IMG/VR virus record: IMGVR_UViG_2703718798_000010 | Coordinates: 1-20,193 of that record | Direction: 5' to 3' (one strand) | Source: a virus | Taxonomy: Duplodnaviria; Heunggongvirae; Uroviricota; Caudoviricetes | Length of the DNA: 20,193 bases | Part shown: positions 835 through 13,124 of the stretch, piece by piece | How the letters are laid out: every line of letters begins with the position of its first letter | Numbering within the stretch: the first letter of the stretch is position 1 | Program-made: the position numbers and the translations under genes | Notes under the pieces: model-generated | Told to the model about the DNA's origin: nothing | What the model saw: only the letters and a program-made list of their open reading frames with translations | The model's database searches: none

Positions 835-1953
835 TCAAATAACCAACTTAACCCATTCCTGACCCCGAGTATCGTTATAGCGATCGGTGGTTGCCTGGAC
901 TTTATGTCCTAGTAATGTTTTTGTATCGATACCCTGTGCACGGTACAGCCGTTCTGATAGAGAGCGTTGTTCATGAAATGTTGGCGGAGTTTTTCCTGCT
1001 GGTGGAATTATCCCAGCCAGATCCCGTGCTTTGGCAAAGTAGTCGCTCAGGTTGTCTTTACTCATCGGCTTCGGTTGTTTCTGGTGCCGACTATGGATTA
1101 GATATGGACTTAATATTCTGTCTCGGCACCCATCAATAACTTCTTTTAACGTTATCCCAATGGCATCACAGCGTAGTGTAAGCGGTAACGCCAGACGCAT
1201 TCCGGTTTTTCCCTGGGTGATATGCAAGTGTTCGTTCCACACATCTGAAAAACGCATGTGGCAAATGTCATCACGGCGCTGACCAGTAACAATCGCAAGA
1301 AGCATTGCGTTACGGATAAAGTGTTTTTCAGGCGTTGCATTGTAAATTTTTTGCCAGTCTTCCATGGTGAGCCTGGCTCTGGTTACTTTAGGGATCGGTT
1401 TACGGGTAGCCTCCGGAGGATTCCATCCAGGAGGAACTTCCCCTGCATGCTGTGCTTCTTTATAAATATCAACCCATAATCCACGATTTACTCTCGCTGT
1501 GCTGACCATGTCTTTATCCAGCCACTCATCCAGTATTAATGCAAAGTCTCTTACTTCCAGTTCTTTCAATGGGTGGTTTCCCAGACGGGAAACCAGGTAT
1601 GCAGCCATTCGGGTTTTTTCTTTGTGAGTTGTAGCTGCAATATCTCCATTTTTCAGTCGCGTGTCCTGTATTTTCAGATATCGATCAACCCATGCCTTTA
1701 ATCTGATACCCCGACGTTTTGTTGCTGACGGACTTTCATCAATTTTGCGCATGAAATATTCAGCTTCTGCTGCAGCTATTCGCTGATTGGCTGTGGAAGC
1801 GATTTTTTCTGCCTTACCTTTGTCTGTTCCGAGTCCGTGAAATTTTCCAGTCACAGGATTTTTATACTGGTAGTAAACTCTGCCAGTTCTGCGATCAAAC
1901 TTTTCGTAAAGACCGGCTACGTCAGTGCTGTTTTTTCGTGGCCTCGGTGACAT
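835..1953 (-). CDS. int: Tyrosine recombinase, lambda-family integrase
   Basis: 372-aa ORF; C-terminus PTFHEQRSLSERLY...LLGHKVQATTDRYNDTRGQEW matches my recollection of the lambda Int catalytic C-terminus including the Tyr. Confidence 0.9.
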   Translation of the reverse strand: MSPRPRKNSTDVAGLYEKFDRRTGRVYYQYKNPVTGKFHGLGTDKGKAEKIASTANQRIAAAEAEYFMRKIDESPSATKRRGIRLKAWVDRYLKIQDTRLKNGDIAATTHKEKTRMAAYLVSRLGNHPLKELEVRDFALILDEWLDKDMVSTARVNRGLWVDIYKEAQHAGEVPPGWNPPEATRKPIPKVTRARLTMEDWQKIYNATPEKHFIRNAMLLAIVTGQRRDDICHMRFSDVWNEHLHITQGKTGMRLALPLTLRCDAIGITLKEVIDGCRDRILSPYLIHSRHQKQPKPMSKDNLSDYFAKARDLAGIIPPAGKTPPTFHEQRSLSERLYRAQGIDTKTLLGHKVQATTDRYNDTRGQEWVKLVI

Positions 1954-5651: not shown

Positions 5652-5891
5652 TCAGTTGGCGTTTCTTGCTAACCAGCGACGCGCGCCAGCTTCCGTTTTA
5701 AACGTTTTGCTTCTGGTATACGTCATCGCGGTAAACGTGCCGTCCAGGTTGGGGAATACTCCACATAGCAGAGATTCGTTGTTGCCAAGCTCGATAGTAT
5801 CCATGCTGACCTCATTTCCCCTTAACGCCGGGGTAGCGGAACTAAAAACCTGCTGCGCTGTTATATAAAGTGTTCCCGCCGTCATGTTCAT
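5652..5891 (-). CDS. Hypothetical protein, first ORF downstream of the leftward promoter
   Basis: 79-aa ORF with GAGG 3 nt before the ATG; no recognisable family. Confidence 0.3.
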   Translation of the reverse strand: MNMTAGTLYITAQQVFSSATPALRGNEVSMDTIELGNNESLLCGVFPNLDGTFTAMTYTRSKTFKTEAGARRWLARNAN

Positions 5892-5983
5892 ACGCCTCGG
5901 GCTGGCTACTTAACCCCTGACCACTGCCGGGTAACTCGAAGTATTGCCTGGCGTTCTGTGGGGCGGGGTGGGGTAGTGGAAAT

Positions 5984-6013
5984 AATCTACAATTAAAAAC
6001 TGTTTTGTGTCAA
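5984..6013 (-). promoter_or_regulatory. Candidate leftward early promoter (pL-like)
   Basis: Minus-strand TTGACA (6013-6008) lies in the spacer of the operator palindrome; candidate -10 TAGATT 18 bp downstream (5989-5984). Confidence 0.4.
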
Positions 6014-6027
6014 CAGTTTTTAATTGT
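5989..6027. promoter_or_regulatory. Operator-like palindrome (OL-like)
   Basis: Perfect 16-bp inverted repeat ACAATTAAAAACTGTT / AACAGTTTTTAATTGT with 7-bp spacer; same half-site as the palindrome at 7027-7061. Confidence 0.55.
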
Positions 6028-6037
6028 TGTGTTGGGC

Positions 6038-6064
6038 AAAAAAAACTCCCTCGAATGAGGGAGT
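6038..6064 (-). terminator. Rho-independent terminator ending the repressor/TA transcript
   Basis: 8-bp stem ACTCCCTC/GAGGGAGT with GAAT loop; A8 run on + strand gives a U-tract on the minus-strand RNA. Confidence 0.7.
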
Positions 6065-6080
6065 GTGAAAATTGTTCAGT

Positions 6081-6368
6081 TCAGATAGGGAAGGGAAATT
6101 GTCGGCGGGCATGCACAATATTTGCAATTTCAATGCTTGAAGCTGCTACTCGGTACAAAACGATATAATTAGGGTGAACCACAATTTCCCGCAAACCGGA
6201 TACTCGATCACTTGGCGGATATAGATATGGATGCTCAGAGAGGGCTAAAACAGACGTTTCAATCCGTATTTTTAGTCTGCGTGCTGCAGGAATATTTTCC
6301 TTAGCAATATAGGCTACGATCTGACGGAAATCATCGCGAGCAGATGGTAGCCACAAAATGGGTAACAT
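6081..6368 (-). CDS. Type II toxin, RelE/ParE family
   Basis: 95-aa ORF; start overlaps the antitoxin stop (TAATG); family assignment from overall resemblance to ParE-like toxins. Confidence 0.7.
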   Translation of the reverse strand: MLPILWLPSARDDFRQIVAYIAKENIPAARRLKIRIETSVLALSEHPYLYPPSDRVSGLREIVVHPNYIVLYRVAASSIEIANIVHARRQFPFPI

Positions 6369-6559
6369 TACTCGCTCCTGTTAGTTACAGCAATTTGAGC
6401 AATAAGATTCTCCATTTCAGCCATTACCTCATCATGTGGAATTGAGGGACGAGGGTCTGCAAGGCTTGACGCCACTTTAGCGCGTAACCATTCGTTGTAA
6501 CTGTTTTCTTGTTCGGTAGTTTCGAATTCTGAAACTATCGGAGAAAGGGCTGTACTCAT
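6368..6559 (-). CDS. Putative antitoxin partner of the ParE/RelE-family toxin
   Basis: 63-aa acidic ORF immediately upstream and coupled to the toxin; GAGGAG RBS 7 nt before ATG; family not identified. Confidence 0.55.
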   Translation of the reverse strand: MSTALSPIVSEFETTEQENSYNEWLRAKVASSLADPRPSIPHDEVMAEMENLIAQIAVTNRSE

Positions 6560-6586
6560 GGCATAACTCCTCTTCTTGTACTGTGG

Positions 6587-6988
6587 TCACGCCCGGCGGC
6601 TTTTTTGTGCCGCCAACCACCGGGCAATGGTTTCTTCCATTGATTTTTTCTTGTCTTTGATTTCTTGAAGCATTTTTTCTTGGTCTTCCTCTGGAAACGC
6701 ACTAAAAGCCTGGAGCAGTTCGCGTTGACGAGGACCAATTTTCATCGTGTCAGGGGTGAAAATTTGCTCCCCCTCTTCAGGAGGCAATAAAAACCAATGC
6801 AATGGATGCCCTGTAACCTCAACCAGTTTATCCAAACTTGAGGCTTTAGGTGTAGCCTTACCGCTGACCCATTGTTGAACAGTTTGTTGTGTCACACCAA
6901 TTCTACGGGCAAGCTCAGCCTGGCTCCATCCAGTTTCCTGAAGAAGCTTGCTGATTCTGTACATAGATACTTCTAGGGCGTTCATCAT
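6587..6988 (-). CDS. HTH XRE-family prophage repressor (DicA/RacR-like)
   Basis: 133-aa ORF with N-terminal HTH (WSQAELARRIGVTQQTVQQW) and a C-terminal segment resembling DicA; divergent from a cro-like gene. Confidence 0.8.
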   Translation of the reverse strand: MMNALEVSMYRISKLLQETGWSQAELARRIGVTQQTVQQWVSGKATPKASSLDKLVEVTGHPLHWFLLPPEEGEQIFTPDTMKIGPRQRELLQAFSAFPEEDQEKMLQEIKDKKKSMEETIARWLAAQKSRRA

Positions 6989-7026
6989 TATTCAATTTTA
7001 CAGGTAAATACTGTTAAAAGCATCAC

Positions 7027-7061
7027 AATAAAAAACTGTTGATCGTGTACAGTTTTTTATT
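7027..7061. promoter_or_regulatory. Operator-like palindrome (OR-like) in the divergent repressor/cro intergenic region
   Basis: AATAAAAAACTGT(T) ... (A)ACAGTTTTTTATT inverted repeat; shares AAAAACTGTT half-site with 5989-6027; extra half-site AAATACTGTT at 7007-7016. Confidence 0.5.
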
Positions 7062-7097
7062 GTAGGCTTTGCTTATAGTTTTTTAGAGGAGAGCAAA

Positions 7098-7370
7098 ATG
7101 CTAGATAGCACTCGCGAAAAAATTAGGCAGAAATACACTCAAGCTGAAATAGGTCGTTATATGGGGGTCGCTCAACAGACTGTTTGGCAATGGTTTAGCT
7201 TTGACGTTCCCCCAAAGCAGGTAATTCCGTTATGTCAGCTAATGAAGTGGGAAGTTACCCCGCATGAAATTCGCCCTGATATTTATCCTAACCCAACCGA
7301 TGGTTTACCTGTTGGATTCAAGGTTAACACATCAAATGCACCGGAGTTGATTCATGAAAATCAAGCATGA
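7098..7370 (+). CDS. Cro-like HTH regulator, YdaS-like
   Basis: 90-aa ORF with GGAG RBS; HTH segment and an ELRPDI-type motif as in Rac YdaS; divergent from the repressor. Confidence 0.7.
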   Translation: MLDSTREKIRQKYTQAEIGRYMGVAQQTVWQWFSFDVPPKQVIPLCQLMKWEVTPHEIRPDIYPNPTDGLPVGFKVNTSNAPELIHENQA

Positions 7371-7779
7371 ACACATCCGCATGGCGATGAATGTCTGGGC
7401 GCATCCGGACGGCGAAAAAGTACCGGCTGCGAAAATTACCAAAGCGTATTTCGAGCTGGGAATGACGTTCCCGGAACTGTATGACGACAGCCATCCGGAA
7501 GCCCTGGCCCGTAATACCCAGAAAATTTTCCGTTGGCTGGATAAAGACACCCCTGATGCTGTTGAAAAAATGCAGGCTCTGTTACCGGCGATCGAAAAGG
7601 CGATGCCGCCTTTGCTGGTGGCCCGTATGCGCAGTCACAGTTCTGAATATTACCGGGAGATCGTCGAACGACGGGATCGGCTGGTGAAAGATGTGGATGA
7701 TTTTGTCGCTGTAGCGATCGCCTGGGGCACCCTGACTAACAGTGGTGGTCAGCCTGGTAATGCTGTTGTTGTGCATTGA
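7354..7779 (+). CDS. YdaT-like protein (CII-position regulator of Rac-type prophages)
   Basis: 141 aa; begins MKIKHEHI and ends VVVH, matching my recollection of Rac YdaT; overlaps ydaS-like by 17 nt. Confidence 0.75.
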   Translation: MKIKHEHIRMAMNVWAHPDGEKVPAAKITKAYFELGMTFPELYDDSHPEALARNTQKIFRWLDKDTPDAVEKMQALLPAIEKAMPPLLVARMRSHSSEYYREIVERRDRLVKDVDDFVAVAIAWGTLTNSGGQPGNAVVVH

Positions 7780-12583: not shown

Positions 12584-12968
12584 AAGCGTTCGCCGGGATT
12601 AACACCAAAGGAGGGAATGTGTCGGATGATATCTCACTGGCAATGGAAGGTGCGCTGGCTGTTATTGCTGTTGTGGGTGTTTACTGCCTGGTTGTGTTTT
12701 TGATGGATCGACTAGGGAACTGAATTCATTACGATATGGGAATTCCCATATCGGGTAAAAACGGTTTGCGGTAAAGCGAGAGTTAAGTAGAATTGCTGCG
12801 GGTGCTTGAGGCTGTCTGCCTCGGGCATGCCACCGTAAGGCAGACAGATAAAAGCCCCAGTTAACATTATGCGTCTTGCAGGACGCTTAACATTAATCTG
12901 AGGCCAATTTCATGCTAGTCACATGTAGGTTAGCCTCTTACACGCCGAAAGGCAAGGAGAAGCAGGCT

Positions 12969-13124
12969 ATGAAGCAGCAAAAGGCGATGTTAGTCGCCCT
13001 GATCGTCATCTGTATTACCGTCATTGTGACGGCACTGGTAACGAGGAAAGACCTCTGCGAGGTACGAATCCGAACCGGCCAGACGGAGGTCACTGTCTTC
13101 ACAGCTTACGAACCTGAGGAGTAA
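12969..13124 (+). CDS. hok: Hok/Gef-family type I toxin; in-frame mok-like extension from 12912
   Basis: MKQQKAMLVALIVICITVIVTALVTRKDLCEVRIRTGQTEVTVFTAYEPEE closely matches HokC/Gef as I recall it; the 70-aa upstream-extended frame resembles MokC. Confidence 0.8.
   Translation: MKQQKAMLVALIVICITVIVTALVTRKDLCEVRIRTGQTEVTVFTAYEPEE

Follow-up and report, generated by a model that had tools for sequence, protein, structure and literature searches.

The presence of a toxin-antitoxin pair between a prophage repressor gene and its leftward operator raises the question of whether the pair belongs to the immunity circuit and which function it serves there. The window, which is the whole stretch of 20,193 nucleotides that was analysed, was found to contain such a pair, very probably within the region that governs immunity and the lysis/lysogeny switch in a lambdoid prophage of the DicA/PaaR type; with the paaA-parE pair inside its repressor operon, the locus is most likely a three-component paaR-paaA-parE system with the immunity type of CP-933M (paaR1). 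The region appears from its sequence to carry a sister immunity type of CP-933P, and the functional reading of the CP-933M/paaR1 type given below is a transfer from CP-933P experiments. The minus strand was found to contain the repressor gene, followed by the genes of a PaaA2-family antitoxin and a ParE toxin and by an intrinsic terminator; two near-identical 39-bp palindromes flank this set, and ydaS and ydaT diverge from it to the right (Table 1). The initial annotation had compared the topology with OL-rexAB-cI-OR of lambda, and OL/pL, terminator, toxin, antitoxin, repressor, OR and a cro-like gene were indeed found in order; the DicA-like repressor, the coupled antitoxin and toxin (TAATG) and the terminator which it had placed on one strand were all present, with small corrections. 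The arrangement is ordinary, because the same arrangement has already been published for E. coli O157:H7 prophages; both the architecture and the reading of the pair as a replacement of rexAB are in print, with the explicit statement that the pair 'replaces rexA and rexB'.

Table 1. Features of the immunity region and their coordinates in the window.
Feature	Position	Strand	Details
ydfA-like DUF1391 gene, first of the leftward (pL) operon	5652..5891	-	PF07151, E=2.1e-27
Leader of predicted pL transcript	5892..5977	-	Conserved across heteroimmune relatives; its right end delimits the immunity region on the left
pL promoter, predicted	5984..6013	-	-35 TTGACA 6013-6008, 18-nt spacer, -10 TAGATT 5989-5984
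OL operator palindrome, predicted	5989..6027	.	ACAATTAAAAACTGTT-N7-AACAGTTTTTAATTGT; 16-bp perfect arms, 7-nt spacer
Intrinsic terminator of repressor-antitoxin-toxin transcript (timm analogue), predicted	6037..6064	-	Stem 6064-6045, then seven T
parE toxin gene, 95 aa	6081..6368	-	PF05016, E=2.5e-15, 57.3 bits (cutoff 23)
paaA antitoxin gene, 63 aa	6368..6559	-	PF21217 PaaA2, E=1.1e-21, 76.9 bits (cutoff 27); no DNA-binding domain
paaR-type (DicA-family) repressor gene, 133 aa	6587..6988	-	HTH_3, E=1.7e-13; N-terminal HTH and conserved C-terminal domain
pRM -10 TAAAAT, predicted	6995..7000	-	Read from the sequence; 6 nt upstream of repressor ATG
Extra half-site AAATACTGTT inside pRM spacer	7006..7015	+	9/10 arm match; candidate weak OR3-like site
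OR operator palindrome, predicted	7025..7063	.	ACAATAAAAAACTGT-N9-ACAGTTTTTTATTGT; 15-bp perfect arms, 9-nt spacer
pR promoter, predicted	7039..7068	+	-35 TTGATC 7039-7044, 18-nt spacer, -10 TAGGCT 7063-7068; palindrome register as at pL
ydaS-like Cro analogue gene, 90 aa	7098..7370	+	PF15943, E=1.6e-09; divergent from repressor gene
YdaT operator TTGATT-N6-AATCAA	7347..7364	.	ydaS/ydaT junction, PRE region; exact match to the CP-933P footprinted site
ydaT gene, CII analogue, 141 aa	7354..7779	+	PF06254; PDB 8bt1 YdaT of CP-933P, E=4.9e-83

The repressor was found to be a DicA-family HTH regulator, co-oriented with the toxin-antitoxin genes and lying upstream of them. Its Pfam matches were of the HTH type alone, with no match to the S24 peptidase that would mark a domain for RecA-stimulated autocleavage, and PaaR2 has likewise been reported to be free of this domain. 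The NCBIfam DicA subfamily was matched over the full length (residues 11-130) with a score below the family cutoff. The protein was 98% identical to that of the second O157:H7 copy (locus L002) and 35% identical to PaaR2; in the latter comparison the C-terminal domain was conserved (30/48 residues), whereas the N-terminal, DNA-binding domain was unrelated (13/75, 17%). The PDB sequence search returned 434-repressor-like HTH domains and no PaaR structure, and generic HTH defence regulators were the only matches of the repressor in PADLOC.

The repressor stop was found to be followed after 27 bp by the paaA ATG, and the paaA stop and the parE ATG overlap by one base (TAATG), which places a PaaA-type antitoxin gene immediately upstream of the toxin gene. 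PaaA matched the PaaA2 structure (PDB 3zbe, E=1.5e-22) and shared 90% identity with the second O157:H7 copy and 65% with PaaA2, whereas the corresponding values for ParE were 85% and 66%, with a match to ParE2 (PDB 5cw7_B, E=3.9e-37). The initial annotation would have been overturned by a 95-aa protein unrelated to ParE/RelE; the protein belongs to the ParE family, and the ParE2 to which it is 66% identical is a crystallised one. Toxicity and neutralisation have been published for ParE1/PaaA1 and ParE2/PaaA2, with no cross-neutralisation between them, and the toxicity of the present ParE and its neutralisation by the cognate PaaA are putative by analogy. No promoter-like site was found in the gap between repressor and paaA, and one terminator was found after parE. 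The sequence is compatible with a single transcript for paaR, paaA and parE, as suggested by the paralogue, for which the operon and co-transcription from the paaR promoter have been published.

On the rightward side, the repressor and ydaS genes were found to diverge from a 109-bp intergenic region (6989-7097) that contains the OR palindrome, followed by the presence of the CII-type activator gene ydaT with a predicted binding site for a leftward establishment promoter. Residues 2-119 of YdaT were nearly identical to 8bt1, and divergence was seen in its last ~20 residues.

The two palindromes had been noted earlier from a common arm. A motif search of the window gave an exact match to AAAAACTGTT-N7-AACAGTTTTT at 5995-6021 and a second one, with a single mismatch, at 7031-7057; the window contained no further match, and matches occurred in 0/100 dinucleotide-preserving shuffles. 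The palindromes lie far above chance expectation. The earlier extent of the left palindrome (5989-6027) was retained, whereas that of the right one (7027-7061) was widened to 7025-7063. The palindromes were 79% identical over 39 nt, the register that fits both was AAAAACTGT-N9-ACAGTTTTT, and the operator consensus was found to be ACAAT(A/T)AAAAACTGT-N9-ACAGTTTTT(A/T)ATTGT. Within each palindrome lie the -35 hexamer and 18-bp spacer of a promoter directed outward (pL or pR), and OL/pL and OR/pR together form a 41-nt inverted repeat with 80% complementarity, the second operator copy being located at the leftward early promoter past the repressor operon. The pL promoter was the sole sigma-70-like site reported by the scan in 5850-7450, with 10/12 consensus matches; its -35 hexamer, which had been described earlier as a leftward TTGACA overlapping the palindrome, lies within the OL palindrome spacer and was invariant in relatives. 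The pR promoter is inferred, because the site lies below the scan threshold; its -10 hexamer is weak, and nearly all relatives were found to keep TTGAT and all of them TAGNNT.

The predicted pRM -10 hexamer was found to be invariant in 19 distinct relatives, followed by the presence of 6 variable nucleotides, and its closeness to the repressor ATG predicts an mRNA with no leader. CP-933P was found to share the spacing of 6 nt between -10 and ATG, and there the 5' RACE start is at the ATG and paaR2 is leaderless like cI (Jurenas 2021, PMC8630535). The half-site AAATACTGTT in the pRM spacer was also invariant in relatives. Three tandem operators per side of the lambda type, which provide cooperative and ordered occupancy, were looked for, and a single full palindrome was found on each side together with the conserved half-site at 7006-7015. 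A symmetric model of four half-sites (7006-7015, the palindrome and 7074-7083), with a span of 78 bp like the PaaR2 footprint, was dropped because the right outer site at 7074-7083 varies among close relatives, and the left half-site alone was kept.

The terminator, which had been placed earlier at 6038-6064, was found on the minus strand ~16 nt past the parE stop, with a stem of 8 pairs (5 of them G-C) followed by the T run (TTTTTTTGCC). Among close relatives its stem was conserved and its loop variable, and loci L003 and L004 were found to contain hairpins at the same position with different stem sequences. Beyond pL, the leader of the predicted leftward transcript hardly varied among 5 loci that represent 3 immunity types, and the identity to the CP-933P-type locus was 96% at 5900-5959 and fell to 48% from 5960. 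A structured RNA of the put or nut kind was considered for this leader and rejected, with no Rfam match and an unremarkable fold (z=-0.95). The DUF1391/ydfA gene was found at the same position in the O157:H7, O104:H4 and Qin loci.

The search for the motif across related prophages, which the initial annotation had proposed, retrieved 37 IMG/VR contigs with two palindromes, and this repressor was found between them in 37/37. The OL-OR spacing was 1034-1037 bp, with both paaA and parE present, in 35 of the 37 contigs, whereas the other two (L032 and L041) were found to contain a 683-bp spacing and an internal deletion that joins the 5' part of paaA to the 3' part of parE. The latter two were considered as an ancestral state with this repressor and no pair, which was rejected because they show the remains of a deleted pair and not an intact empty site. 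As the IMG/VR contigs were retrieved with a pattern that contained the core arms, part of the invariance of these arms reflects ascertainment; the OR outer arms, which lay outside the pattern, were also invariant in 41 sequences (40 contigs and the window), and 5 of the 9 spacer positions vary. The 22 IMG/VR matches with a single site were found to contain no homologue of any module gene and were treated as chance. Across three immunity types, the operators were found to change with the repressor DNA-binding domain, and the flanks and the repressor C-terminal domain were conserved. Sequence and comparison together indicate that the palindromes are specific to this repressor type, and the comparative evidence points to the toxin-antitoxin pair and the repressor C-terminal domain as a probable conserved core, while operators and DNA-binding domain would be exchanged together. 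Locus L004 was considered as a fourth immunity type and rejected; it contains two tandem repressor genes and an OR resembling that of CP-933P, and for these reasons it was not counted as independent.

The literature on the CP-933P-type system (Hallez 2010, Jurenas 2021, Prolic-Kalinsek 2023) includes EMSA, footprints, 5' RACE, reporter fusions and plasmid stabilisation on the paralogue. The CP-933P architecture was established by experiment as PL/OL, parE2, paaA2, leaderless paaR2, OR, ydaS and ydaT; PaaR2 and YdaS bind the OR region and both repress PL933P, which contains three predicted operators OL1-3 (Jurenas 2021, PMC8630535), and YdaS acts like Cro. The present region was found to be identical to CP-933P in the order and strands of its elements (pL/OL on the ydfA side, parE, paaA, repressor, OR, ydaS, ydaT) and in the YdaT operator, with 93-96% nucleotide identity in ydaT and the pL leader. 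In contrast, besides the unrelated DNA-binding domain, the Cro analogue was different, a clear intrinsic terminator was found after parE, and a single 39-bp palindrome was present on each side where CP-933P contains several repeats of the GTTTAGTAA type (the CP-933P operator consensus). The closer relative, L002, was assigned to paaR1-paaA1-parE1 (CP-933M according to Jurenas 2021, PMC8630535) by elimination, since each O157:H7 genome contains two copies and the other is ParE2. It was found to contain the same layout, identical OR palindrome arms and an OL palindrome, whereas its parE allele was divergent, its OL spacer was 1 nt longer and three OR spacer bases differed. A gene of the 'ECs1072 family' adjoins the L002 locus.

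The likeness to lambda lies in the OL-rexB-rexA-cI-OR-cro-cII topology, in operators overlapping the outward pL and pR, in a terminator before OL, in a predicted leaderless repressor mRNA and in accessory genes that would be co-transcribed with the repressor in lysogens. The region differs from lambda in showing no sequence homology to CI, RexA or RexB, in a repressor without the S24 autocleavage domain, in one palindrome per side instead of three operators, and in a cargo that is a ParE/PaaA pair and not an ion-channel exclusion system. The OL-OR distance is about 1.04 kb here and about 2.3-2.4 kb in lambda. The dicC-dicA-(ydfABC-dicF-dicB) region of the E. coli K-12 Qin prophage was found to contain a short DicA-family repressor with a similar C-terminal motif, a divergent cro-like dicC, and the repressor gene followed by the promoter of the ydfA operon; it differs in the lack of a toxin-antitoxin pair between dicA and ydfA (166 bp apart), in a repressor of 25% identity and in its operators.

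A mechanism can be proposed from the CP-933P experiments and the geometry. The 133-aa repressor would bind both palindromes and block pL and pR, and its C-terminal domain, common to the octameric PaaR2, may bridge OL and OR in a loop of ~1,035 bp. The leaderless pRM transcript would run from the repressor through paaA and parE and stop at 6064-6037, so that repressor, antitoxin and toxin would be expressed together in lysogens. The Cro analogue of the YdaS kind would compete for the sites of the repressor, and YdaT would activate the leftward PRE. Labile PaaA would neutralise ParE; in a cell that has lost the locus, the toxin would be released and cause death, so that prophage and immunity region would be stabilised by an addiction module.

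The operator reading has to be weighed against the palindromes being RNA hairpins or terminators, or boundary sequences for recombinational exchange of the immunity module. The OL palindrome was flagged by the scan as terminator-like as well, and both palindromes are close to mosaic breakpoints of the region; however, neither falls within the predicted main transcripts (they lie upstream of the pL, pR and pRM starts and downstream of the terminator), A-T pairs dominate their stems (3 of 16 pairs are G-C), a -35 hexamer lies inside each of them in the same register, their sequences change together with the repressor DNA-binding domain, and PaaR2 and YdaS leave footprints on the equivalent regions of CP-933P, which makes such a role scarcely credible. 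It is also very unlikely, though somewhat less so, that the pair is an autonomous self-regulated cassette with its own promoter beside the repressor gene and outside the immunity circuit. The PaaA-ParE complex has been reported to partially repress the promoter alone, and the parE allele recombines independently (71-76% nucleotide identity to the CP-933M-like contig, compared with 96-100% for the repressor), but the missing DNA-binding domain of PaaA, the short and promoter-free gap upstream of paaA, the published co-transcription of the paralogue and the constant location of the pair in the 35 contigs argue for membership in the repressor operon.

Within that operon, the pair could serve as a functional analogue of RexAB: transcribed from pRM in lysogens, it would respond to an infecting phage by abortive infection or superinfection exclusion, instead of or besides addiction. 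The position between repressor gene and OL, the expected co-expression with the repressor and the defence against phage by other RelE/ParE-superfamily modules such as higBAC are consistent with this role, and the pair behaves as optional cargo because related prophages with other repressors are without it. However, the equivalence to rexAB is positional, both proteins being of the PaaA2 and ParE families with no RexA or RexB homologue in the slot; neither toxin nor antitoxin matched a PADLOC defence model, and the literature search found no report of phage defence by PaaA-ParE. The published assays on the paralogue concern plasmid stabilisation and post-segregational killing, and ParE2 activity was undetected in either switch state (Jurenas 2021, PMC8630535). 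A defence role is thus improbable, the phage-exclusion function hinted at by the initial annotation found no support, and the published data favour addiction for the pair. Similarly doubtful is a broader proposal, according to which the pair either truly acts in superinfection exclusion or abortive infection or stands guard over the immunity region, killing cells in which a heteroimmune recombinant has taken the place of that region; a minimal switch of two operators, with an oligomeric repressor joining single palindromes 1,035 +/- 2 bp apart, would tie the expression of the pair to lysogeny.

The discovery value of the region is small. New but minor are the operator consensus, the register of operator and promoter, the fixed OL-OR spacing, the change of operators with the repressor DNA-binding domain, and the two natural deletion derivatives without the toxin-antitoxin pair. 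The consensus is of practical use for the paaR1/CP-933M immunity type, for which no published operator analysis was found in the literature search, and the promoter and operator registers together with the inferred leaderless start could guide experiments. [quoted passage not shown] Among 5,426 complete E. coli genomes, the same immunity type was found in 510 (about one in ten), and the paaA-parE pair was present in about one sixth.

The module of the window is a paaR-paaA-parE three-component toxin-antitoxin system of the kind reported by Hallez (2010), as summarised in PMC4803016 and PMC5086665, and we infer that, among the published paaR-paaA-parE immunity modules, it belongs to the CP-933M/paaR1 type, an assignment that follows that of the second O157:H7 copy (L002). 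The antitoxin and toxin genes were found to overlap by one base in the TAATG, and the matches of their products to PF21217 and PF05016 bear out the coupled antitoxin/ParE-RelE-family toxin pair of the initial annotation. Among solved structures, the 95-aa toxin was matched to the E. coli O157:H7 protein ParE2 (5cw7_B, E=3.9e-37), the antitoxin to PaaA2 (3zbe, E=1.5e-22) and the repressor to generic 434-type HTH domains only. The nearest NCBIfam family of the repressor was DicA, over the full length yet under the family cutoff, in line with the DicA-like repressor first proposed. The rightward genes were identified by domain search as YdaS-like and YdaT, the latter matching the solved CP-933P YdaT (8bt1, E=4.9e-83). 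The left side of the module contained lambda-type integrase, excisionase-like, exonuclease, DUF1482 and DUF1391 (ydfA) genes and the right side contained DnaT-like O and lambda P-like replication genes; judged by this gene content, the surroundings are those of a lambdoid prophage. A near-identical module was found in E. coli IHE3034, within a prophage adjoining a tRNA-Ser gene.

One exact copy of the motif AAAAACTGTT-N7-AACAGTTTTT lies at 5995-6021 and a copy with a single mismatch at 7031-7057. There was no further occurrence in the 20-kb window and no match in any of 100 dinucleotide-preserving shuffles, so the two palindromes of shared arm said to bracket the module are both present. The limits of the left palindrome stood as first given, whereas those of the right palindrome were corrected from 7027-7061 to the positions in the table. 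The two palindromes are 79% identical across 39 nt and contain the common register AAAAACTGT-N9-ACAGTTTTT, and OL/pL and OR/pR were found to be one unit in inverted orientation (41-nt inverted repeat, 80% complementary). The -35 elements of both pL (TTGACA) and predicted pR (TTGATC) lie inside the palindrome spacer, an overlap with the leftward one having been noticed before, and the -10 elements (TAGATT and TAGGCT, respectively) each take the final palindrome base as their first. Protein binding to the arms would mask the -35 and the entire promoter spacer at OL and OR. The terminator expected between the toxin gene and the leftward promoter was recovered by the scan and, in the aligned loci of relatives, was found to be kept at the post-parE position despite differing hairpin sequences.

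Positions of the immunity-region features and of the prophage integrase in the window
Feature	Position	Strand	Description
Prophage integrase	835-1953		
pL promoter	TTGACA 6013-6008; TAGATT 5989-5984	minus	18-nt spacer; promoter/terminator scan
OL palindrome	5989-6027		16-bp perfect arms, N7
Intrinsic terminator	stem 6064-6045	minus	followed by seven-T run; directly past toxin gene; scan
Toxin parE	6081-6368	minus	95 aa; ParE family PF05016, E=2.5e-15
Antitoxin paaA	6368-6559	minus	63 aa; PaaA2 family PF21217, E=1.1e-21
Repressor	6587-6988	minus	133 aa; HTH_3 regulator
Predicted pRM -10 TAAAAT	7000-6995	minus	6 nt, then repressor ATG (6988)
OR palindrome	7025-7063		15-bp perfect arms, N9

A natural OL variant, present in L002 and seven IMG/VR loci, contained one additional T in the spacer (N10, not N9), by which the pL spacer becomes 19 nt instead of 18. 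A terminator-like plus-strand hairpin with a T run was also found by the scan at 6625-6642, antisense to and within the repressor C-terminal coding region; it may be due to chance or may be a stop for rightward read-through.

Four lines of sequence evidence, namely geometry, co-variation, distribution and footprint, were found to agree on the palindromes as putative operators. Alignment of loci from three immunity types showed a left flank near-invariant up to GGGGCGGGGTGGG, with the divergence starting at the operator. L002, of the same repressor type, was found to retain the palindrome on both sides; the relative L003, with another DNA-binding domain, contained a different OL palindrome (AATACCACTACTATTTA / TAAATAGCAGTGCTATT) and a related motif in OR, and the CP-933P-type loci contained GTTTAGT/ACTAAAC repeats. 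When 2.9 million viral contigs were scanned for exact matches to the pattern AAAAACTGT-N8-10-ACAGTTTTT, 63 loci were obtained; the pattern by itself guarantees the invariance of nine core bases per arm and so limits the distribution and footprint lines. Two sites were present in 37 of these loci, all 37 with a window-type repressor (98-100% identical) between them; in 35/37 the sites lay 1034-1037 bp apart and both paaA and parE were present. The 22 single-site loci contained no homologue of any module gene and were counted as background. In 41 sequences (40 contigs and the window), the outer arm bases of OR, which lie outside the search pattern, were invariant and five of the nine spacer positions were variable, followed by the presence of TAGNNT directly past the palindrome in all 41; the pR -35 TTGAT was present in nearly all, one containing TTTAT. 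The pRM -10 and an additional half-site AAATACTGTT (7006-7015) were invariant among relatives. A mirror-image half-site candidate at 7074-7083 was variable among relatives and was discarded.

In phage Evi (LR597642), ParE2 was found at 100% identity, together with a repressor starting with MQKKE, the N-terminus of PaaR2 by experiment. This PaaR2-type repressor is 35% identical to that of the window (13/75 residues over the N-terminal DNA-binding part and 30/48 over the C-terminal domain); L002 is 98% identical to the window in the repressor, 90% in PaaA and 85% in ParE. Because exactly two O157:H7 copies are present in the literature, one of them ParE2, L002 is taken by elimination as paaR1-paaA1-parE1 of CP-933M. 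Of 5,426 complete E. coli genomes, 510 contained the repressor-plus-OR segment of the window and 633 the PaaR2 type; the paaA-parE pair was present in at least 842 complete E. coli genomes.

The parE of a CP-933M-like relative (L022) was 71-76% identical to that of the window at the nucleotide level, the adjacent paaA 5' half and repressor gene being 96-100% identical, which suggests recombination or diversifying change inside the toxin gene. E. coli OkiPb01713 (L004, 3936-4799) contained two repressor genes in tandem upstream of paaA-parE. The one adjoining a CP-933P-like OR looked PaaR2-like when its alignment row was translated by eye; the other (153 aa) contained a DNA-binding domain 52% identical to that of the window and an altered C-terminus overlapping paaA. 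This arrangement looks like the scar of a recombination between immunity types.

The same architecture has been published for CP-933P, of which the paaR-paaA-parE copy was placed in the prophage immunity region by Jurenas et al. 2021 (PMC8630535). There, PaaR2 is the CI analogue, the 97-bp paaR2-ydaS intergenic region is footprinted by PaaR2 and YdaS, PL933P past parE2, with the predicted operators OL1-3, is repressed by PaaR2 and by YdaS, a PRE-like promoter is activated by YdaT, and the locus is bistable (PMC8630535). Prolic-Kalinsek et al. describe the toxin-antitoxin pair as replacing rexA and rexB. The YdaT operator was defined by the same authors as TTGATT-N6-AATCAA, and an exact match was found at 7347-7364, at the ydaS/ydaT junction of the window. 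As the architecture is already in print, the lambda-like topology with a toxin-antitoxin pair in the rex slot, as read in the initial annotation, is a correct independent rediscovery: the analysis confirms the observation and supports the interpretation, but the architecture was known. Small additions are the operator consensus with its register to pL, pR and pRM for the CP-933M/paaR1 immunity type, the constant OL-OR spacing of about 1,035 bp, the co-variation of the operators with the DNA-binding domain and the natural deletion derivatives.

The geometry of pRM matches that of the CP-933P paaR2 start (GATAAT, 6 nt, ATG), where the mRNA was proved to be leaderless by 5' RACE and N-terminal sequencing (Jurenas et al. 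2021, PMC8630535), and by this analogy the pRM transcript of the window would be leaderless. The gap from the repressor stop to the paaA ATG is only 27 bp, with no promoter-like site inside it in the promoter/terminator scan, and the sole minus-strand terminator of that scan follows parE; repressor-antitoxin-toxin co-transcription has been published for the paralogue only.

The nucleotide identity to the CP-933P-type locus was 96% at 5900-5959, fell to 48% at 5960 and was back at 93-96% from 7340, the YdaT operator; therefore, the exchangeable immunity region extends from the pL start to the cro end. The identity was 30-48% over the operators, DNA-binding domain and cro, whereas the repressor C-terminal domain and the toxin-antitoxin pair reached 55-83% in places. 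The pair and this C-terminal domain form a semi-conserved core flanked by two operator sets, both of which must fit the repressor DNA-binding domain. The leader of the predicted pL transcript (5892-5977, minus strand, about 85 nt) was near-invariant across heteroimmune prophages with unrelated operators and repressors; it matched no Rfam family and its predicted fold was not unusual, a nut/put-like site, a recombination hotspot and a protein-binding site being possibilities.

In the related elements Qin dicA, phage Tritos and phage vB_EcoS-689R5, which have other repressors, the interval from the repressor gene to the ydfA-side promoter was found to lack the pair. The pair is optional cargo in its slot, as rexAB likewise is in lambda. 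The analogy with the rex slot had hinted at a phage exclusion function of the pair. This is unlikely, as the pair matched none of the PADLOC defence models, no paper reporting defence by PaaA-ParE was found by literature search, and the published assays describe ClpAP/ClpXP-dependent post-segregational killing and plasmid stabilisation (the latter for the CP-933P pair, PMC8630535), with toxin activation in neither switch state. The authors of that work proposed that the pair guards the immunity region from rearrangement or replacement. Two IMG/VR contigs, L032 (7960-8176) and L041, contained the same repressor and both palindromes at an OL-OR spacing of 683 bp, the pair being lost by an internal deletion of about 352 bp, after which the 5' end of paaA runs straight into the 3' end of parE; the repressor, the terminator and both operators are spared. 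Such joint loss of toxin and antitoxin function is one that an addiction module would permit.

The minus-strand stretches 614-815 and 1-585 gave Rfam hits for the C4 antisense RNA, its a1/b1 targets and isrK, side by side with an ORF6N-domain (antirepressor-like) ORF that runs past the left end of the window. As this region lies left of the integrase, it is probably part of an adjacent element whose immunity control is of the P1/P7 c4-ant style. The sok antitoxin RNA of a hok/sok type I toxin-antitoxin locus was found at 12800-12974 (plus strand, Rfam 116.9 bits), and the prophage therefore contains a second, unrelated addiction-type module; IHE3034 contained hokD at the equivalent place. A phage-borne cluster of three tRNA genes, Met-CAT, Arg-TCG and Arg-TCT, was present at 17189-17437 (plus strand), followed by the presence of the sRNA STnc100 at 17777-17989 (plus strand, 147 bits).
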